41,483 bases of DNA from a virus. Lineage: Duplodnaviria; Heunggongvirae; Uroviricota; Caudoviricetes. The DNA lies in IMG/VR virus record IMGVR_UViG_2565956725_000003, positions 1-41,483 of that record; one strand, given 5' to 3'. Of the stretch, positions 1,143-8,603 are shown piece by piece; positions within the stretch are counted from its first letter, which is position 1, and each line of letters opens with the position of its first letter. The notes under the pieces are model-generated. The model saw nothing but the letters and a program-made list of their open reading frames with translations, was not told the origin of the DNA and did not search any database. The position numbers were made by a program, and so were the translations under genes.

Positions 1143-1164
1143 CATTCATAGTGCAGGGTTCAAA

Positions 1165-1179
1165 TCATTCCCACTCAAT
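1165..1179 (-). other. putative att core: guaA 3'-end-like remnant marking the left prophage junction
   Basis: Minus strand reads ATTGAGTGGGAATGA (IEWE-stop), the conserved GMP synthase C-terminus, and the frame is broken by a stop just upstream. Flanked by inverted repeat CACTCAATT (1172-1180) / AATTGAGTG (1200-1208). Confidence 0.45.
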
Positions 1180-1289
1180 TATTTACGGATACCATAACCA
1201 ATTGAGTGATAACATTTTTCCAAAGATGAATTTTTCTCGTACCGTTTTATATACCGTCACCGGAAATCAGTACCATGAAAAATGCCATG

Positions 1290-1772
1290 CTATCTGGTCA
1301 GGGTGTCGTACTGTTTTTCGCAGACTCTTCCGGCTTCGGCTGCCCGGTCAGCATACTCTGCCAGTTGTCTATTTCTCTCGAGAGATTTGCTGAACACGTC
1401 GGCAAGCAAAACTCCGGTGTCTGCGGCTGACGACCCAGCGCCGACAATGGCGTTATAGTGCCTGAGCTGCTCACGGATGGCAACGAGCTGTTGCTGCAAC
1501 CGGCCAGCGCGAGCGGCAGCATCAAGAGCATCATTGCGCGCCTGGTCGATCCTCTGCTGCGCTTCACGTTCATTGATCGATTTCTCCTGTTCGTAGTGCT
1601 GACGAATTCTCTCATCTTCGGTTTTGCGGTCTTCTTTCGCCTGTGCATACCCAGCGTCGTACTGACGACTGCCGTGCACATTCCAGGCAACAACTCCTGA
1701 TATGACCAGAACAGCAAGCACCGCCATGATAATCAACTGTTTACGGTATGCTTTTACGAATGACCAGATCAT
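1290..1772 (-). CDS. i-spanin (Rz-like)
   Basis: 160 aa with N-terminal TM helix then Q/R/E-rich coiled coil; last gene of the lysis cassette, start overlaps the endolysin stop. Confidence 0.8.
1298..1534 (-). CDS. o-spanin (Rz1-like lipoprotein) embedded in Rz in the +1 frame
   Basis: Internal ATG-ATG start gives [13 protein letters not shown] (lipobox LAGC) followed by a Ser/Pro-rich mature peptide, entirely inside the Rz ORF. Confidence 0.65.
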   Translation of the reverse strand: MMLLMLPLALAGCSNSSLPSVSSSGTITPLSALGRQPQTPEFCLPTCSANLSREIDNWQSMLTGQPKPEESAKNSTTP

Positions 1773-2398
1773 ACAGCCAGCACCTTACTGGCAGTGACGT
1801 ACCGCGCGCGCCGGTCGTCGATGCCATTCCTGCCACCATTGATAATCAGAGTTACACGTGCAATATCGCCGGTATACTTCATGCAACCTTTGCTGGAGAA
1901 GAACCACGCCGCGCTACGAGCCGCGTATTCGTCCTGCGCCAACAGTTCAGGATTCTCCAGCAGGTCCACTTTCAGGCCGTTTCCGCAATCACGATAGTTA
2001 TTCAAACCGGTAATCTGGATAAGTCCGCGGCCACGGTAATTCCAGCCATCGCCGGGGGCATTGTTCCCCATGCGTTTGCTGTACACCAGATTGGCAATCG
2101 CTCGCTGGCGCTCGAGTGGCAATGGTGGTTCACCAGCATGGCGACCCAGTGCATTAGCCTGCCCCTGAGTGAGACGCCCAGCCCGAACGAAGTTAGCCAG
2201 TCCGCTGACACTGTAGTTGAAATTCTCCTGCAACCTGGTGAAGCCCCCAGACTCATGCCCGACTTGAGCAATAAACATTGCCTGATCTTCTGCTTTGCTG
2301 ATACCAAACTCTTTCATCGCAGAAGTTATATGCGAGAACCAGCGTGCGGCCAGCGCCTCGCTAATACCAGCAGCTCGCTGGAATTGTTTAATCTCCAT
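1769..2398 (-). CDS. endolysin, glycoside hydrolase family 19
   Basis: Start MEIKQFQ with RBS GAGGT; motifs VGHESGGF and [16 protein letters not shown] typical of GH19 lysozymes. The ORF-track start at 2629 is rejected because it runs through the holin gene. Confidence 0.8.
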
Positions 2399-2696
2399 GT
2401 TTAGACCTCGATATTTTGAAAATCTGAACAACGTTACCGCGTGTTTTAATAACCGCGGCAAGCATGACAGCGTTGATAATGACCTCAGATAAATCCACAG
2501 CCATTGGCGTGCGTAACCAGATTGCATAGACGACACGAACAGGAATACTGGCCGCAGCAACAATAAGGAAATAAGCAAGCCACCCTCCCCATCTTCGATG
2601 TTGAGAGCCGTTACGCCGGAATGTGACAACGCGAATTGCTATGCCAGTACAAATAACTGCATTGGTGATAAGCAAAAAAAACTCATGCGTTACCAT
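2388..2696 (-). CDS. putative holin
   Basis: 102 aa with about three TM segments and a charged C-terminus (KISRSKHGD); RBS GGGGAG; immediately upstream of and overlapping the endolysin start. Confidence 0.55.
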
Positions 2697-3096
2697 CGTC
2701 TTTTCTCCCCGGAATTAAATCGCGTGGATTGTCTGAACGGTGGTAGAGCCATATACCAATACGCACAGCGACAATTGCTGACACGAATGCGCCAGCAGAG
2801 AAAACAATCCCTTTTTCAAAAGAGTCCTGCGTGATGGTAGGGATCAGGCTGGCTATGCCGATAAGAATTGATGCTGCTGGTTTGTAGAAAAGAAGTCCAC
2901 AGAGAAAGCTAAGCATCGATAAGAGTACGCGACGATGAATTGGGTACTCTACCGCAGAGGTAACAAAAATTACCGCACCAGCAAGAGCACCGAGCGCCAC
3001 CTCTGGCGGAACGCCTACGATAACTGCAGCAAGAGAGCTCACACTAAGCCATTGATTTAAAGAATCAGTAGTTAGATGGGCTGACATAATGAACAC
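2683..3096 (-). CDS. small multi-pass membrane protein (second holin/antiholin or other)
   Basis: 137 aa with three to four hydrophobic helices, between tailspike and holin; start ambiguous (GTG at 3096 or ATG at 3087), weak RBS. Confidence 0.4.
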   Translation of the reverse strand: MFIMSAHLTTDSLNQWLSVSSLAAVIVGVPPEVALGALAGAVIFVTSAVEYPIHRRVLLSMLSFLCGLLFYKPAASILIGIASLIPTITQDSFEKGIVFSAGAFVSAIVAVRIGIWLYHRSDNPRDLIPGRKDDGNA

Positions 3097-3316
3097 CGTT
3101 TATTACGCATAACAATCTCCTTACTATTGAAGATTCACACATAATAAACCATTTAAGGATAATAGTTACCTCAAAACGCTGTATTTCTACCTTCTACGGC
3201 AATGAAAATTTCGTTCAGAAAATGGTCTAGTGTACCTCTCAGTCACAATTAAAGAAGAAAGAAGCCGAACTTACTTCGTAATAAGCAAGCCGGCTACTAA
3301 GATTAATCCTCAATAT

Positions 3317-6073
3317 TTAGCTACTTTCAAGCATTGCAAGACGTGATTCTATTTTTTCGATTCTTCTACGCAAATAAGCTGACTCAAGCCATAAACACTG
3401 GTCAGTACGGATACCCCACCTATTTCCAGCCTTGCAAACCAGAGTTCGCTCTTCTGTTTCGTATTCTTCTTCCATCTCAATTTCGACGCCATCCACAACT
3501 TTAGTGATCATCCTTACCGCCATCACTGGCGCGTATTTATCATCCCATTCATCGTAACAGAGAAGGCCAAATCTGGTTCCATCAATCCCATGCGCGAGGA
3601 AAGTGTCTCTCACTTGTTGTGCTATAACACCAAAATGCCAGCGGGCACCATCTCCCTTTTCCCTGACGGCATCAAGCCAGCGAAAAGCTACAATCCTGAT
3701 ATCTCCCCATGCATCCAGAATTGCATCACCTTCATAACCACGAGACATATACAAGCTGAGCTCACTTGTACTAATCGGTTCACTTTTTTCTCTACCATCT
3801 GATGTGTTTATCGAACCGTTCGCAGAATAAACCTGTGCCCATCTAAATGATGGTGCACCAAGAGATTTGCTGTTATCAATAATTGGTGAAAAATTACCTT
3901 TAATGGCAATATTTCCAGAGTCGCCGAATATATTAATAACTGCAGAGTCATCACCATGGTTTTTTACGCTTAAGTTTCTTGATGAAATATTTATATCTTT
4001 GTTATATCCACTAACATTAATCCATCTTTTACCATCAATGTGATACCCGTAAATATTTCCGTCTGATTGTTCGTCAGGTGACTCTCTAAGAACAATAGCA
4101 TCTGCTCCAGACGACCATTGTATTTTTGTATCTGTAGGCCTCCAGTTCTTTATAATGAACGAACCATCAGTAAACTCCGTTTTTATTTGTCTATTGTCTA
4201 CAAATGCGTCTCTTGGTTTAAACTCACTTGTGTTAACGCTGCTCTGAAGATCAGAAGCAAAAAATCTAAGATTTCCTGTATAACCCTGAGTCTCGGTCTG
4301 GTTATACGCAATCATAATTCCATTTTCAAACTCAGATGATGTTATTTTAACATCACGGCAATCACCAAAAATGCAATTTCCTTTATCAAATGTTGTTTGA
4401 GCTTTGAATTTATCAAACCTTAAATTACGAACAGGGAAACCATCAACCTCTAATGCAAAGGATGCAGGAAGGCCAAAGTATTCTGATGGCTTACCTGATG
4501 TATGATCAAGAGTAGTGGCTACTGTATTCTCAAAAACAGTCCCGCTAAAATTATTACCAATTGACGGAAACCTGATTACACTTATTGTACCTTGTATTTC
4601 AGGAGAAATACCAGATAGTGTGATGTTAGCTCCATCAAATGATGCATCTGAATACGTATATACTGATTCACTGCCAGCAATTTTAAACTGTTTAACTGAA
4701 GTTATTCTCATCGACTTTTTATGTTTAAATGTCACTGAGCTTTCAGTATTACTTACAAGATCAATCTGAGGGCTATTCCTTATCGCGATCCCTGACTGGA
4801 CATAAACGTTATTAAAGTGCGTTTTTTCAGGATTTCCCTTCATTGAAAGGCTCCCGTCATTTTCTGTCAGTAGTAGTCCTTTTACCCTCCAATAGCCGAC
4901 AATCTGTACGTTATCAATAACTGAATCACAGCTATCGTATACATGCAACCCTATATCCCAGTCATCACCCAATGAATAAGAATCAGGGTTATTGTATCCT
5001 TCAATACCATTTTTACTTACCATTATTCTCAGGTTGCGTAACTGTGATGCCCTGTTGATACTAACAGCTACGCTCATGGCTTTTGGTGTAGCAGGAGTAA
5101 CACCTACAGAATCTTCATTTGTAAACTCAGTGAACTTACAAGATATCCCTTCAACAATTTTAACTGGTCTTTCATTAGAGATGTTAAAAAAATATTTGTT
5201 TTTTTCTCCATCACCAGTAAATACAAGATGGGTTCCTTTACTCCAACTTTTTAATAATCTTTCAGGCGCTGGTCTATATGTATCCCAATAATCAATGCCA
5301 TCACCAATTAAAGACACTCCAGGAGGCACATCTATGTTCTTAGAAATCATCCATTTACCTGCAGGTATTCTAACGACACTTGCACCAGAATTTATCGCAT
5401 TAATTAACCATTCAGACGCATCAACTTCAAAATTTAATGCAGCATATCTTTGCTCAAACGGAACAAAATCAAGAGCGTTAACGTTATCCCGCATCTTATC
5501 CTGGAACGTTCGGTATACTGCTCCAGAACCATACTGAATAAACCAACCAAAACCACCAACAACTCCGGCGATTGCAGCATCAACATAATTGCGCATTGAT
5601 CGATTATTTACAGCATCCTGCTCAAGTGATGGATCTGCAAGGTTAGAAATTTTGTTTTGCTTTGCATCGTAATATTTTGCAAGCAAAGATGGTTTCATCA
5701 ATGCACGTCTGAACCATCCAAAACATTGCTGGATCAGCATCGTCAGATAGTCAAAGGCATCTTCATGCACCTCGGGGAAAAATTTTCCCTGATTACGAAG
5801 ATCAGTCTCCTGCACCACATCAAGCACACGATCTATCGTAATTCGCCATCCAGCAGCAAGCGGCGACGGAAGAACAACAGAACCGCCACTATAAGTGCCC
5901 GCCCCTGTTACCGTATAACCGGTATCCAGAACCAATTCTGTTACGTTCCCGTTCAGGTCAGACACCTGAACAACCAGGTCGGATTTTTTGAAAATACGGA
6001 AGGTATACGGAAATGATGTCGTAGCTCCGTTACCTGTGTATTCGTTGTGGTCAACTTCGGTTGAGACCGTCAT
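3317..6073 (-). CDS. tailspike/tail fibre with C-terminal intramolecular chaperone (peptidase S74-like)
   Basis: 918 aa; N-terminus resembles the T7 gp17-type adaptor domain; AT-rich central part; C-terminal roughly 150 aa resembles self-cleaving chaperone domains of endosialidase-type fibres; RBS GGAG. Confidence 0.8.
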   Translation of the reverse strand: MTVSTEVDHNEYTGNGATTSFPYTFRIFKKSDLVVQVSDLNGNVTELVLDTGYTVTGAGTYSGGSVVLPSPLAAGWRITIDRVLDVVQETDLRNQGKFFPEVHEDAFDYLTMLIQQCFGWFRRALMKPSLLAKYYDAKQNKISNLADPSLEQDAVNNRSMRNYVDAAIAGVVGGFGWFIQYGSGAVYRTFQDKMRDNVNALDFVPFEQRYAALNFEVDASEWLINAINSGASVVRIPAGKWMISKNIDVPPGVSLIGDGIDYWDTYRPAPERLLKSWSKGTHLVFTGDGEKNKYFFNISNERPVKIVEGISCKFTEFTNEDSVGVTPATPKAMSVAVSINRASQLRNLRIMVSKNGIEGYNNPDSYSLGDDWDIGLHVYDSCDSVIDNVQIVGYWRVKGLLLTENDGSLSMKGNPEKTHFNNVYVQSGIAIRNSPQIDLVSNTESSVTFKHKKSMRITSVKQFKIAGSESVYTYSDASFDGANITLSGISPEIQGTISVIRFPSIGNNFSGTVFENTVATTLDHTSGKPSEYFGLPASFALEVDGFPVRNLRFDKFKAQTTFDKGNCIFGDCRDVKITSSEFENGIMIAYNQTETQGYTGNLRFFASDLQSSVNTSEFKPRDAFVDNRQIKTEFTDGSFIIKNWRPTDTKIQWSSGADAIVLRESPDEQSDGNIYGYHIDGKRWINVSGYNKDINISSRNLSVKNHGDDSAVINIFGDSGNIAIKGNFSPIIDNSKSLGAPSFRWAQVYSANGSINTSDGREKSEPISTSELSLYMSRGYEGDAILDAWGDIRIVAFRWLDAVREKGDGARWHFGVIAQQVRDTFLAHGIDGTRFGLLCYDEWDDKYAPVMAVRMITKVVDGVEIEMEEEYETEERTLVCKAGNRWGIRTDQCLWLESAYLRRRIEKIESRLAMLESS

Positions 6074-6176
6074 GTTAAATCTCCAGATAGTCGCAGCACC
6101 CGTTGCGCCGCATATCTGGTTATTCTATTACCTGAAAAACCACATATGGATAGAAAGACTGTAAATACGAATAGAT

Positions 6177-6193
6177 ATTACCTTTCGGGTAAT
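6177..6193. promoter_or_regulatory. operator-like 17-bp palindrome ATTACC-N5-GGTAAT (copy 1)
   Basis: ATTACCTTTCGGGTAAT, perfect 6+6 inverted repeat, in the divergent region between the tailspike start and the SOS-box ORF. Confidence 0.6.
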
Positions 6194-6229
6194 TTGCAAA
6201 ACGTGCTGGATAGCAAACAAATTATTTGA

Positions 6230-6249
6230 TACTGTATAAATATACAGTT
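6230..6249 (+). promoter_or_regulatory. LexA (SOS) box inside a sigma70-like promoter
   Basis: TACTGTATAAATATACAGTT matches the CTGT-N8-ACAG consensus; sits between TTGATA (6226-6231) and TATTAC (6249-6254), 20 nt upstream of the ORF at 6269. Confidence 0.8.
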
Positions 6250-6268
6250 ATTACATGGAGAAGATAAG

Positions 6269-6526
6269 ATGCAGCAGTATCACTATCCACTGGAAGACGG
6301 ATTTACCGAAAGGATTCACACGCCGGGAGGCGTCAGGTCACTGGTGGAGGGATCGCACTTGATGAAATTACTCCGGGATCTCGATAAGGATGGATTTAAT
6401 GTCGATGGCCCACTTGCCGAACTGACTGCACTGATTAACTACGTCACCAGCTCACAGATGTCTATGCAGGATCTGCAAACACATCTCGACTATTGTGCCG
6501 AACAATTACGAAAGCAAACCAGATAA
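6269..6526 (+). CDS. small SOS-controlled protein, paralogue of the Bro protein C-terminal domain (candidate antirepressor)
   Basis: 85 aa, RBS GGAG; aligns with the last ~65 aa of the 6840..7532 product (shared IH-P-GV, LM-LL, DG-V-G, AELT, QTH-Y). Confidence 0.7.
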   Translation: MQQYHYPLEDGFTERIHTPGGVRSLVEGSHLMKLLRDLDKDGFNVDGPLAELTALINYVTSSQMSMQDLQTHLDYCAEQLRKQTR

Positions 6527-6556
6527 GGTTTGCAATTACCAAGTGGAGTGCTTATA

Positions 6557-6573
6557 TTTACCTTTGCGGTAAA
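6557..6573. promoter_or_regulatory. operator-like palindrome (copy 2) nested in a larger inverted repeat
   Basis: TTTACCTTTGCGGTAAA, flanked symmetrically by GGAGTGC (6545-6551) and GCACTCC (6582-6588). Confidence 0.55.
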
Positions 6574-6665
6574 TTTACATCGCACTCCTCTTGTGCCATA
6601 GTAATCGGGCACTGGCAAAATCCAGTGCCGGGATTGGTCTCCCGGATTACTACAGAGGCACATAT

Positions 6666-6686
6666 GCCGCATAAGCGGTTTTTTTA
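6666..6686 (+). terminator. weak terminator-like hairpin plus T-tract
   Basis: CCGC-ATAA-GCGG followed by TTTTTTT; short stem. Confidence 0.3.
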
Positions 6687-6839
6687 TGTGTAAAGCGCAC
6701 CTATTCTATGGTGGGCTGTGTGGGGGCACCGAAAGGTGCGCCGGGTTCCTTTGTAGCCGGTAAGACCAACTCTGCACAGTTCACCACCATCTGATTGGTC
6801 TCAGCGGTGGTGATTAACCTAACTACAAAGGTGATCGCC

Positions 6840-7532
6840 ATGAATACCAAACCTTCCATCTTTTCCTTTGAGTCATCCTGCCAGATCCGTATGTTCATGA
6901 TTGACGGAGAACCTTGGTTTGTCACCAAAGATGTGTGCAATGCTTTGAATATTGATGTTACACAAGCGAGAAAACTTGATAAAAAAGGCTGGAACAAAAA
7001 GGGGCTGTATTCAATACAGACCCCTGGTGGAATACAAGAACTATCCATCGTTTCAGAATCAGGTCTCTACATCCTTATTCTGCGTTGCAAAGAGGCAATG
7101 ACAGAGGGAACGAGAGCATTCAGATTTCTTGAATGGGTTACAGGTGAGGTTCTTCCTCAGATCCGCCGCACCGGAAGTTACATTAAAAACTCGCTCCCGC
7201 AGGAAGAACGCATAAAGATGGTTGCCGACCAGGTAGCCAACGCCACGGCGTCAGCAGTAATGCAGGCGATGAAGATAGAGAACAAAACCTACAGTGCCCC
7301 GCTGAAGCCCGGCTACCGCAGCCTGATTCACTCGCCGTCTGGTGTTCTCGGCCTGACGGAGAACTCACTGCTGATGAATCTGCTGAACCAGTTACAGGAA
7401 GACGGGCACGACGTATCGGGCGCGGCGGCGGAACTGACCACCATGTTCTGCTACATCGTCGGTGTGAGTAAATGCCTGCGTGATATCCAGACCCACGCGG
7501 AATACATCAACGACAAGGCAGGGGTCTTCTGA
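6840..7532 (+). CDS. Bro-N domain protein (antirepressor-like)
   Basis: N-terminal Bro-N signature (FSFESSCQIRMFMIDGEPWFVTKDVCNALNI ... GLYILILRC ... FLEWVTGEVLPQIRRTGSY); start at ATG 6840 with RBS AAAGGTGA. Confidence 0.85.
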   Translation: MNTKPSIFSFESSCQIRMFMIDGEPWFVTKDVCNALNIDVTQARKLDKKGWNKKGLYSIQTPGGIQELSIVSESGLYILILRCKEAMTEGTRAFRFLEWVTGEVLPQIRRTGSYIKNSLPQEERIKMVADQVANATASAVMQAMKIENKTYSAPLKPGYRSLIHSPSGVLGLTENSLLMNLLNQLQEDGHDVSGAAAELTTMFCYIVGVSKCLRDIQTHAEYINDKAGVF

Positions 7533-7541
7533 CAGAACGGC

Positions 7542-7568
7542 GGCACAGGGATGTGCCTTTAAATAATT
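7542..7568 (+). terminator. terminator-like hairpin after the Bro gene
   Basis: GGCACA-GGGA-TGTGCC followed by TTTAAATAATT. Confidence 0.4.
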
Positions 7569-7597
7569 CTGTACAGATTGCAGGTGAATAGCGTACT

Positions 7598-7614
7598 ATT
7601 ACCCCAAAGGTAAG
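7598..7614. promoter_or_regulatory. operator-like palindrome (copy 3)
   Basis: ATTACCCCAAAGGTAAG upstream of the two-gene cassette; further GTAAC-N13-GTTACC half-sites at 7626-7650. Confidence 0.55.
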
Positions 7615-7730
7615 AAAGTTGATTTGTAACATTTTAGTTTGTAGTTACCGTGATGGTTTTGCTGCAGAAAGTTAACTAGTCAAAATCACACCGTATGTAA
7701 GTCACGTCTGTTCCCGTATGGGAGGATGAT

Positions 7731-7949
7731 ATGTTTAAATTTGATATGCAACTCAACCAAAACTATGCCTCTTTTTACCATCCAGAAACTGGTAAAGCTG
7801 TTTTCGTTGACTCTTTCGATAATGAAGAATTTGATATCAGAATTGGGACCCTACGCCAAAGTAAGCATGTTGCTACTGTACGTGCATCCAATGATGATGA
7901 ATTAAATCAAAAAATAAGTGAGGCGACCTCCCGTTATCTATGTCTATAA
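7731..7949 (+). CDS. hypothetical protein, first gene of an AT-rich two-gene cassette
   Basis: 72 aa; strong RBS GGGAGGA; no recognisable domain. Confidence 0.6.
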   Translation: MFKFDMQLNQNYASFYHPETGKAVFVDSFDNEEFDIRIGTLRQSKHVATVRASNDDELNQKISEATSRYLCL

Positions 7950-8317
7950 CAGAACAACAACTCATTGATCTTGAGGATGAGATTAACGAGATCTTGCAAG
8001 AAGATGCGGCAAGAATTCACTTTTCATTTCACGCAGCATATGAACGCCTGAACGACGAGAGGAACAAACCGCCAATTACTCTTGCTGAGCTTGAAGATGT
8101 GTTTAAATCGTTTATATCTGCACATCTGCAGACTGTTTTGGATTTTGCTGAAGGTACAACTTTCACCATAAAGTGCAACAAAAGCGCCCTTCATTTTCCT
8201 TGCGCCATTGTACACGAAAGAGAGTTTGGGAAAACGTGGGTTATCCAAAACGTCATTACAGCCATGAGGAAAGTGGGATTCAAGTCTAAAGATTCTATTA
8301 TCCTCGAAGTTAATTAA
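7940..8317 (+). CDS. hypothetical acidic protein, second gene of the cassette
   Basis: 125 aa; start overlaps the upstream stop by 10 nt; followed by a terminator; no recognisable domain. Confidence 0.6.
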   Translation: MSITEQQLIDLEDEINEILQEDAARIHFSFHAAYERLNDERNKPPITLAELEDVFKSFISAHLQTVLDFAEGTTFTIKCNKSALHFPCAIVHEREFGKTWVIQNVITAMRKVGFKSKDSIILEVN

Positions 8318-8339
8318 GCCCGCACTGAGGGCTTTTTTA
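8317..8339 (+). terminator. rho-independent terminator
   Basis: AGCCC-GCACTGA-GGGCT followed by TTTTTT directly after the 125-aa gene stop. Confidence 0.7.
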
Positions 8340-8410
8340 TGGACGAAACAAAAGTCAGTGCTACACTCATTGACGCCACATTGAGGTGGCTTATAGATGG
8401 AAATTTCACA

Positions 8411-8572
8411 ATGAAAAAAGCATTTGCTGCACTGTTCGTTTTGTTGTCTCTGGTAGCTTCAACTCAGGCCTTTGCCGGTCGTTGTCAGCACGACAGCGAC
8501 ACTGCTGCTGACGGCTCCCGCTGCGGTGGGCGTTCTGCGGATTCCCGCCCGGGTGGCGGTGGCATTCGTTAA
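8411..8572 (+). CDS. small secreted Gly-rich two-cysteine peptide
   Basis: 53 aa from internal ATG: signal peptide MKKAFAALFVLLSLVASTQAFA then a 31-aa mature peptide with two Cys. ATG at 8339 rejected (abuts terminator, no RBS). Confidence 0.45.
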   Translation: MKKAFAALFVLLSLVASTQAFAGRCQHDSDTAADGSRCGGRSADSRPGGGGIR

Positions 8573-8594
8573 AAACAAGGCCGCGAAAGCGGCC
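8571..8594 (-). terminator. terminator for the minus-strand late operon, possibly bidirectional
   Basis: GGCCGC-GAAA-GCGGCC hairpin; on the minus strand it is followed by TTGTTTTT. Confidence 0.6.
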
Positions 8595-8603
8595 TGTGAC
8601 ATG

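Follow-up and report, generated by a model that had tools for sequence, protein, structure and literature searches.

A tailspike gene with an AT-rich centre

The analysed window, a stretch of 41,483 nucleotides, very probably carries an epsilon15-like (Uetakevirus-like) prophage of about 39 kb between guaA and yfgI of E. coli, of which the gene described here would be the single tailspike gene. The flanks of the gene are 93–99% identical to phiv142-3, a classified Uetakevirus, and the prophage carries a full set of structural and lysis genes in the Uetakevirus-type order, with the tailspike at its usual position. The open reading frame lies on the minus strand exactly as the sequence-only reading had claimed, running from ATG to TAA (Table 1), and PHROG 1171, "tail spike protein", matches the product end to end (E = 2.5e-300). 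All 2757 nt are 100% identical in E. coli FDAARGOS_1257, and the gene is 99.9% identical in the phage record KM389360.

Table 1. Features of the tailspike gene and its 3′ side, in window coordinates
Feature	Position	Strand	Remarks
Complete tailspike gene	3317..6073	(-)	918 aa, 102.4-kDa precursor; from the ORF listing
Module A, aa 1–203	5465..6073	(-)	Virion-binding anchor of epsilon15/phiV10 (Uetakevirus) type; 45.0% GC
Module B, aa 204–257	5303..5464	(-)	Cap with which the beta-helix starts; AT-richness already present, GC3 22%
5′ recombination junction, GGTGATGGCATTGATTATTGGGATACATATAG	5274..5305	(-)	Encodes GDGIDYWDTYR (aa 257–267); identity switch
Module C, aa 258–757	3803..5302	(-)	Right-handed parallel beta-helix body and C-terminal stalk; predicted receptor-binding/depolymerase domain, probably K14-capsule specific
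3′ recombination junction, TTTAGATGGGCACAGGTTTATTCTGC	3822..3847	(-)	Encodes FRWAQVYSA (aa 743–751); seven codons ahead of the cleavage serine
Predicted catalytic dyad and cleavage site	3785..3802	(-)	Ser758 (3800–3802) and Lys763 (3785–3787), motif T|SDGREK; from the 3gw6 alignment
Module D, aa 758–918	3317..3802	(-)	Peptidase_S74 intramolecular chaperone auto-processing domain; 161 aa, 18.6 kDa, release predicted; 44.9% GC
Non-coding 3′ end of the imported block	3171..3316	(-)	Similarity to phiv142-3 resumes only at 3170

The base composition along the gene is not uniform. GC content is 48.5% in the whole window and averages 49.3% in windows outside the tailspike gene. Relative to same-length windows elsewhere in the window, the two ends of the gene deviate little (z = -1.4 for aa 1–203 and -1.3 for aa 758–918), whereas aa 204–757 (3803–5464) fall to 36.5% GC (z = -5.9), a value that no same-length window elsewhere in the 41 kb reaches; the lowest-GC 1.5-kb stretch of the entire window is also this central stretch. 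Thus, the AT-rich centre between ordinary ends, which had been proposed earlier, was recovered, and the boundaries given for it were good: the low-GC block begins near aa 201, and the boundary placed at 3800 coincides with the codon of Ser758, the predicted site of autocleavage. The AT bias of the centre lies at synonymous sites. GC1 and GC2 shift little there, and GC3 is 40% in aa 1–203, 26% in aa 204–720 and 34% in aa 721–918; when only identical amino acids are compared, GC3 is 26.7% in this gene against 52.1% in a 73%-identical homologue.

Four modules and two recombination junctions

At least four modules, each with a history of its own, compose the mosaic tailspike gene. The anchor, module A, shares 71.5% amino acid identity with epsilon15 gp20 over aa 1–166 and 68% with phiV10 (about 66–72% for both), and it is 93–96% identical in nucleotides to phiv142-3, ZX5 and HEMP4 over nt 1–590/610 of the gene only. 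A PDB sequence search matched it to the N-terminus of the Dpo31/Carin-1 fibre (E = 5.5e-32), and Foldseek matched it to 8ck1_B (E = 3.7e-8). The N-terminus had earlier been called T7 gp17-like. The Pfam profile Phage_T7_tail (PF03906) stayed under its threshold (14.0 bits against a cut-off of 25.2, E = 0.041, aa 135–161 only), and the Foldseek match to the T7 gp17 N-terminus 7boz_a was remote (E = 0.013, probability 1.0, TM (target) 0.48), with the model of low confidence at aa 87–187. Membership in the T7 gp17 group was therefore rejected; a remote likeness at the level of the fold may exist, and the anchor is of the epsilon15/phiV10 type.

Module B is 100% identical in amino acids to the corresponding part of the Uetake-like prophage in strain O15_8X, from which it differs in 1.9% of codons, and is similar to, yet diverged from, that of the P22-like spike. 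The body downstream of module B is just 73% identical to the O15_8X prophage. In contrast, the body (aa 258–750) is about 99% identical in DNA between this spike and P22-like prophages: nt 774–2278 of the gene are 98.5–99.3% identical to part of P22-like prophage tailspikes that have other N- and C-termini, and the identity to the tailspike of EC17GD31 (98.5%) is confined to these positions. The switch takes place within the 5′ junction, where identity to the P22-like spike starts and identity to the O15_8X allele stops; G257, G259, D261 and W263, which are encoded there, are invariant across 53 family members. The identity to the P22-like spike stops at the 3′ junction, and different S74 domains are encoded downstream in the two genes.

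Comparison with phiv142-3 revealed common flanks and a common stretch of nt 1–610, and nothing in common over window positions 3171–5463. The central domain is accordingly not common to all relatives, phiv142-3 and others sharing only this first part of the gene and the flanks. The N-terminal part was matched in 509 E. coli genomes, against 29 genomes with the central part (the spike being P22-like in 16 of them and Uetake-like in 13). These counts and the near-identical DNA in P22-like spikes bear out the earlier proposal of a receptor-binding or depolymerase domain, acquired by horizontal exchange, in the AT-rich centre. The chaperone counts as a further, independently swapped module, because it is missing from the phiv142-3 comparison and the P22-like spike has a different S74 allele; of the "conserved ends" ascribed to the gene, the N-terminus is conserved among relatives and the C-terminus is exchanged on its own. 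The exchange is unusually clean, with about 99% identical DNA in two unrelated temperate backbones and both junctions at short conserved motifs. Such swaps would arise by homologous recombination at GDGIDYWDTYR and FRWAQVYSA, and the AT-rich block would be a recent import, unadjusted to its new genome, from what we infer to be a low-GC gene pool. The closest virulent-phage homologue, in the Justusliebigvirus SD2, is 60% identical and has 40.6% GC.

On the 3′ side, a hairpin formed by GCCGGCUUGCUU...AAGUAAGUUCGGC and followed by the U-run UUCUUUCUUCUUU (about 3251–3294) appears in the minimum-free-energy fold (82 nt, -22.3 kcal/mol, z = -2.2); a simple terminator scan past the stop codon did not find a hairpin at this position. 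The fold hints faintly at a terminator-like hairpin 3′ of the tailspike. Across the family, at least five different types of N-terminal module occur. In four to five genomes the cassette, whole or in part, appears to be present at two sites, which may represent two cassette-bearing prophages per cell.

The centre has the right-handed parallel beta-helix of pectin-lyase-fold depolymerases, and D261, D373, E404, E416, E542, D563, D574 and E583 are the invariant acidic residues of its family. A PDB sequence search returned no solved relative of aa 260–700, a Pfam search of the protein gave no match in the centre and NCBIfam likewise nothing usable; fold searches fit a hydrolase, a lyase and a non-catalytic binder alike. 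The C-terminal chaperone that had been claimed is well supported: Peptidase_S74 (PF13884) matches aa 758–829 with 40.6 bits against a cut-off of 22 (E = 3.1e-10), and the K1F endosialidase chaperone 3gw6 is matched both by sequence (aa 709–917, E = 4.7e-34) and by Foldseek (E = 2.5e-13). In the 3gw6 alignment, Ser758 stands opposite Ala and Lys763 opposite Lys, which we take to be the S911A substitution and K916 of endoNF. Ser758 is kept in 45 of the 53 family members and Lys763 in 46, and a Ser-Lys dyad with the same spacing has been described for endosialidases and MYRF (PMC3742443). With the dyad intact, a mature spike of 757 aa would be the expected product.

Two readings would deprive the AT-rich block of a foreign origin or of a function. 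Its composition could reflect amino acid content or selection on the domain; receptor-binding domains are often AT-rich, and the unrelated domain of phiv142-3 also has 36% GC. However, GC1 and GC2 are nearly unchanged while GC3 drops, an unrelated phage backbone carries this DNA at about 99% identity, and the comparison at identical residues (27% against 52%) largely refutes this explanation, which we regard as very improbable. Equally slight is the probability that the gene is a functionless pseudogene in a decaying prophage remnant. The NCBI pipeline does flag the identical FDAARGOS_1257 copy as "incomplete, missing C-terminus", but the 2757-nt frame is intact, the cluster of the 918-aa protein counts 654 member sequences, the dyad and the family-invariant residues are kept, and the prophage retains its structural and lysis genes. 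The flag looks like an annotation artefact.

Hosts of the cassette and the K14 capsule

Our analysis revealed that the K14 group-2 capsule locus is present in 28 of the 29 E. coli hosts of the body, compared with 108 of 5426 genomes that carry the K14-type kps region 2 locus (hypergeometric P = 1.5e-48, a value that ignores phylogeny and includes clonal groups, namely four CREC/CRKP genomes and four E20/E50/E57/E67 genomes). The K14 polymerase gene has three allele groups, and hosts fall into each of them. The cassette resides in two unrelated prophage backbones at three or more integration sites (guaA-yfgI, dacD-sbcB and a third). O-antigen clusters were read in six hosts and the O11 wzy gene was searched across all genomes; hosts of the near-identical body (at least 98.3% nucleotide identity) have at least four unrelated clusters, O11, O83, O15 and O2/O50. 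This variety of backbones, sites, O-types and polymerase alleles indicates several independent acquisitions. The diverged, GC-normal allele was found in only two genomes, both K14. The single exception is GF43, in which the K14 polymerase gene is missing; the roughly 177 kb scanned beside its pheV showed integrative elements and islands only, and no kps locus.

The O15 and O11 lineages are classically K52, and this type was considered first for the locus; it was dropped in view of the KpsS-like Kdo-transferase domain and of the identical locus of JJ1886, which is typed K14. The genes of the locus, with GT2 and a KpsS-like Kdo-transferase domain, a GalE and an O-acetyltransferase, fit a Kdo-containing polymer, as K14 is. 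The name K14 is taken from gene content and from one figure legend, in which the JJ1886 locus is called K14 (PMC10866875). Neither the supplementary tables of PMC13171606 nor the text of PMC4192283 decided the name of the K-type.

Because the hosts span at least four O-serogroups and 28 of the 29 share the K14 locus, the receptor of the spike is probably the K14 group-2 capsule, a Kdo-containing and probably O-acetylated polymer, and not the O-antigen. A single K locus among the lysogens is the pattern expected for capsule-specific tailspike depolymerases of the K1 endosialidase or K5 lyase type. An O-antigen-specific endoglycosidase, as in epsilon15, phiV10, P22 and HK620, would be usual for both podovirus groups; the genera and the beta-helix architecture are the same, and a clear link between prophage receptor-binding protein and host O-serogroup is described for Lederberg- and Uetakeviruses in PMC10408124. 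The same paper, however, mentions receptor-binding-protein subtypes that cross serogroups and suggests the K-antigen as their receptor. O-antigen specificity was rejected on the mixed O-types found in the six hosts and in the O11 wzy search, together with the single K locus common to nearly all hosts, and we consider it quite unlikely. It is also unlikely, to a lesser degree, that the link to K14 is indirect, so that another structure travelling with K14 lineages is recognised or the hosts merely share ancestry. The association statistic is blind to phylogeny, clonal groups inflate the count, and GF43 stands apart; against this, the association extends over three polymerase allele groups, at least four O-types, two backbones and at least three integration sites, and the diverged allele, too, occurs in K14 hosts only.

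With K14 as the probable receptor, we lean towards the view that aa 204–757 constitute a K14-capsule-specific depolymerase, encoded by a cassette of about 1.5 kb that moves between two sorts of temperate phage, Uetake-like and P22-like, in extraintestinal pathogenic E. coli. In this model, aa 1–203 would fix the spike trimer to the virion tail, and the beta-helix would bind and probably cleave the surface polysaccharide, allowing the phage to reach the outer membrane. The S74 chaperone would drive trimer folding of the C-terminal stalk and would then cut itself off between Thr757 and Ser758 through the Ser758/Lys763 dyad, giving an 83.8-kDa mature spike and the 18.6-kDa fragment. Since K14 contains Kdo, the bond that the spike cleaves might be a Kdo or GalNAc linkage, and the mechanism one that is structurally uncharacterised. 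A description of a phage enzyme specific for the K14 capsule was not found in the literature.

Recent surveys place K14 among the most frequent and most invasive capsules of E. coli (PMC13171598, PMC13171606), and detection reagents based on tailspikes are said to be available essentially for K1 and K5 alone (bioRxiv 10.1101/2025.01.29.635457). If the assignment is true, the domain could serve as a K14 probe, as a typing marker or reagent, or as an anti-virulence (anti-capsule) enzyme, and temperate podophages of E. coli could be matched to K-type as well as O-type.

Comparison with known tailspikes

Mosaic tailspikes and S74 chaperones are textbook knowledge, and the architecture itself is already known. 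The spike resembles epsilon15 gp20 and the spikes of phiV10 and phiv142-3 in its N-terminal phage-binding domain, its location with the morons on one side and the lysis cassette on the other, and the prophage backbone. Past aa 203, the sequence is unrelated to these Uetakevirus tailspikes. Epsilon15 gp20 consists of a beta-helix, a beta-sandwich and an esterase "petal", has no S74 chaperone and targets the O-antigen; the present spike has another beta-helix, possesses the chaperone and occurs in hosts of mixed O-types.

The C-terminal intramolecular chaperone with its Ser-Lys dyad is shared with the K1F endosialidase (endoNF) and the spikes of CUS-3 and K1 prophages, as are a probable capsule- rather than O-specific logic and carriage on temperate podoviruses. 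CUS-3 is a P22-like K1 prophage, and endosialidase domains turned up in Uetake-like prophages among the E. coli genome matches. In contrast to the endosialidases, whose catalytic domain is a sialidase beta-propeller, the putative catalytic domain here is a beta-helix, and its predicted substrate is K14 instead of polysialic acid.

Another counterpart is the P22-like (Lederbergvirus) tailspike of EC17GD31 and 15 other genomes, which shares the DNA of aa 258–750, the predicted receptor and a terminal S74 domain. The EC17GD31 spike differs in its P22 gp9-type head-binding N-terminus (PF09008), in a different S74 allele of lower GC and in its length of 825 aa. Receptor-binding proteins of E. coli phages have been described as a conserved, genus-specific anchor with an exchangeable receptor-binding domain, and the conserved motifs flanking that domain have been proposed as recombination hotspots, in PMC10408124 (Virol J 2023), along with subtypes that cross O-serogroups and maybe target the capsule. 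Our spike follows this scheme of anchor, exchangeable domain and flanking motifs. The passages of PMC10408124 that were consulted give no K-type to this subtype; the link to K14 and the exact junctions were worked out in the present analysis.

Tailspike gene and its base composition

The window represents an epsilon15-like (Uetakevirus-like) prophage of ~39 kb, inserted between guaA and yfgI. It carries genes for integrase, RecT, replication, terminase, portal, capsid and internal core proteins, followed by morons, the tailspike gene, two holins, a GH19 endolysin and a spanin-like gene. This description comes from the annotated prophage of FDAARGOS_1257, which has a 100% identical tailspike. 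In the ORF listing of the window, the tailspike is a single long frame of 918 aa with an ATG start and a TAA stop, and PHROG 1171 (“tail spike protein”) covers the entire protein (E = 2.5e-300). The NCBI pipeline calls the FDAARGOS_1257 gene a pseudogene (“incomplete, missing C-terminus”) ending after 825 codons (L003:7001-9475, equivalent to window 3599-6073); the 918-codon frame is actually intact and, since the P22-like spike is also 825 aa long, the flag seems to be an annotation artefact arising from the mosaic. A tRNA-Arg gene lies between the terminase and portal regions of that prophage (L008:18136-18212).

The sequence-only reading had described an AT-rich centre in this gene, and the composition analysis confirmed it and placed it at aa 204-757, in good agreement with the positions given there (Table). 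Outside the tailspike gene, no window of the same length was as AT-rich, and the lowest-GC 1551-nt stretch of the full 41 kb falls within the gene. Third codon positions carried most of the drop, with a GC3 of 26% at aa 204-720 versus 40% at aa 1-203 and 34% at aa 721-918.

Table. Positions and base composition of tailspike segments and neighbouring features (z, GC relative to same-length windows elsewhere in the window)
Feature	Position	Strand	GC	z
Whole window	1-41483		48.5%	
Tailspike gene	3317-6073	minus		
aa 1-203, anchor	5465-6073	minus	45.0%	-1.4
aa 204-757, centre	3803-5464	minus	36.5%	-5.9
aa 758-918, chaperone	3317-3802	minus	44.9%	-1.3
5' junction, GDGIDYWDTYR	5274-5305			
3' junction, FRWAQVYSA	3822-3847			
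Lysis cassette, similar to phiv142-3	1163-3170			
Upstream region and gene nt 1-610, similar to phiv142-3	5464-6814			
Moron/antirepressor region	6100-8600			

Mosaic junctions and origin of the centre

Similarity to phiv142-3 covers the lysis cassette (95.6% identity) and the upstream region with the start of the gene (93.4%), and none was found between window positions 3170 and 5464. The P22-like prophage of EC17GD31 adjoins dacD and encodes P22-type ejection proteins, Arc-family repressors and an antirepressor. Compared with its spike gene, ours showed random identity to nt ~750, 97–100% to nt ~2250, and random identity again afterwards; compared with the Uetake-like allele of O15_8X, it was 93–100% identical to nt 750 and about 70% beyond that. 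In both comparisons the 5' junction lay within GGTGATGGCATTGATTATTGGGATACATATAG, which encodes a motif invariant across the family. The 3' junction is seven codons before Ser758, and past it the P22-like gene codes for a different S74 domain. These junctions and identity breaks indicate that the gene consists of at least four modules, and the S74 chaperone is a module exchangeable by itself.

The proposed horizontal exchange of the centre is supported by its near-identity to part of a P22-like spike with different ends and by its GC3 bias. Where the two share an amino acid in aa 258-757, the codons have a GC3 of 26.7% here versus 52.1% in the O15_8X allele (73% identity), so the bias reflects mutational background rather than the make-up of the protein. 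The two recipient backbones have 47–49% GC and the cassette has 36% in either; we infer that its donor was a third pool of low GC.

The O15_8X allele (L004:4001-6736) encodes 911 aa, of which aa 1-257 are almost the same as in the window. Its body after aa 257 has 48.6% GC and its chaperone 52.8%, making it a mosaic in the reverse compositional direction, present in only 2 of 5426 genomes. Upstream of the tailspike, the moron/antirepressor region, with a BRO-N protein and small ORFs, aligns only in patches among the window, phiv142-3, FDAARGOS_1257 and O15_8X, and is a second variable region.

Anchor, central domain and chaperone

The N-terminus had been likened to T7 gp17. A weak Foldseek match (7boz_a, E = 0.013) was present, and Pfam Phage_T7_tail scored below threshold (14 bits vs 25.2), so this likeness is a remote fold relation at best. 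The fibre N-terminus of the Carin-1 phage tail assembly matched with E = 3.7e-8 (8ck1_B). The exact label is an epsilon15/phiV10 anchor: aa 1-203 share 66–72% identity with the N-terminal parts of the epsilon15, phiV10 and SPN1S tailspikes, and residues 1-247 of epsilon15 gp20 form a flexible phage-binding domain (bioRxiv 10.64898/2026.07.31.742079). Of the two ends read as conserved, only this one held, with 93–96% DNA identity to phiv142-3, ZX5 and HEMP4 limited to nt 1-590/610; the different S74 domain of the P22-like gene speaks against the other. In other E. coli prophages the same anchor is joined to an endosialidase beta-propeller (K1-type domain), SGNH/GDSL hydrolases or GH28-related beta-helices, so this prophage family has a broad range of receptor domains, capsule-specific ones included.

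No sequence match over aa 260-700 was found in Pfam, NCBIfam or PDB. An AlphaFold2 model (53 homologues) gave pLDDT above 90 across aa 190-720 and low values at aa 87-187 (linker) and aa 728-755 (trimer-dependent stalk). The modelled fold does not point to one mechanism. Homologues are present in Justusliebigvirus SD2 (60% aa identity) and a Vectrevirus (45%), and family members elsewhere join this centre to P22 head-binding, Ackermannviridae TSP-N, T7-tail, tail-collar and other N-termini.

The C-terminus, read earlier as a self-cleaving chaperone, is a Peptidase_S74 chaperone (40.6 bits, cut-off 22), matching that of K1F endosialidase (3gw6; E = 4.7e-34 by sequence, 2.5e-13 by fold). Ser758 and Lys763, conserved in 45–46 of 53 relatives, align with an Ala and a Lys of 3gw6, namely S911A and K916 of endoNF. 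Autocleavage at Ser758 is predicted to yield products of 83.8 kDa (aa 1-757) and 18.6 kDa. Autocleavage of such domains is known to rely on a Ser-Lys dyad (PMC3742443).

Distribution and candidate receptor

The anchor matched in 509 of 5426 complete E. coli genomes, while the centre, far from being shared by all relatives, occurred in only 29 (13 Uetake-like and 16 P22-like spikes). The centre query was placed twice in OZ040490, Combat2C1, E57, ECE170 and O15_8X; the Uetake-like copy of O15_8X is the diverged allele. Double placement may reflect one cell housing both a Uetake-like and a P22-like prophage with this cassette, and the two prophages would then have a direct opportunity to recombine.

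O-antigen clusters differ between hosts of a near-identical centre: O11 (EC17GD31, E20, E50, E57, E67, W4), O15 (M160133) and O2/O50 (VG38-53E1). In contrast, 28 of the 29 hosts, across all three allele groups, carry the gene for a 760-aa capsule-locus protein found in 108 of 5426 genomes (groups of 31, 51 and 26; each allele as query retrieved all 108). The overlap has a hypergeometric P of 1.5e-48, uncorrected for phylogeny. The protein combines an N-terminal GT2 domain with a KpsS/KpsC-like Capsule_synth domain, suggesting a polymer containing Kdo. The matching locus in JJ1886 is labelled K14 (PMC10866875), and Kdo is a component of the K14 capsule. Both genomes with the diverged, GC-normal centre are also K14. 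The sole host lacking the K14 polymerase gene is GF43, and no kps genes were found beside its pheV in the ~177 kb read (NZ_CP172127.1 4338001-4515000; L016-L019). Sequence at pheV of GF43 includes a large integrative conjugative element of roughly 80 kb, with type IV pilus and TraD/TraG genes, as well as other islands. In JJ1886, galE of the K14 region 2 has an internal stop (L014:7893-8882), and the polymerase gene is split in several genomes; therefore, the capsule may go unexpressed in some “K14” genomes.

Taken together, the sequence-only interpretation of the spike is supported, with the anchor type and the chaperone end corrected, and the architecture is of an already known kind. Our literature search found no papers describing a phage enzyme specific for K14. 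Receptor-binding-protein subtypes of these genera were already known to cross O-serogroups, with capsule proposed as their receptor (PMC10408124); our new suggestion, based on genome co-occurrence, is that the receptor of this spike is more likely than not the K14 capsule.
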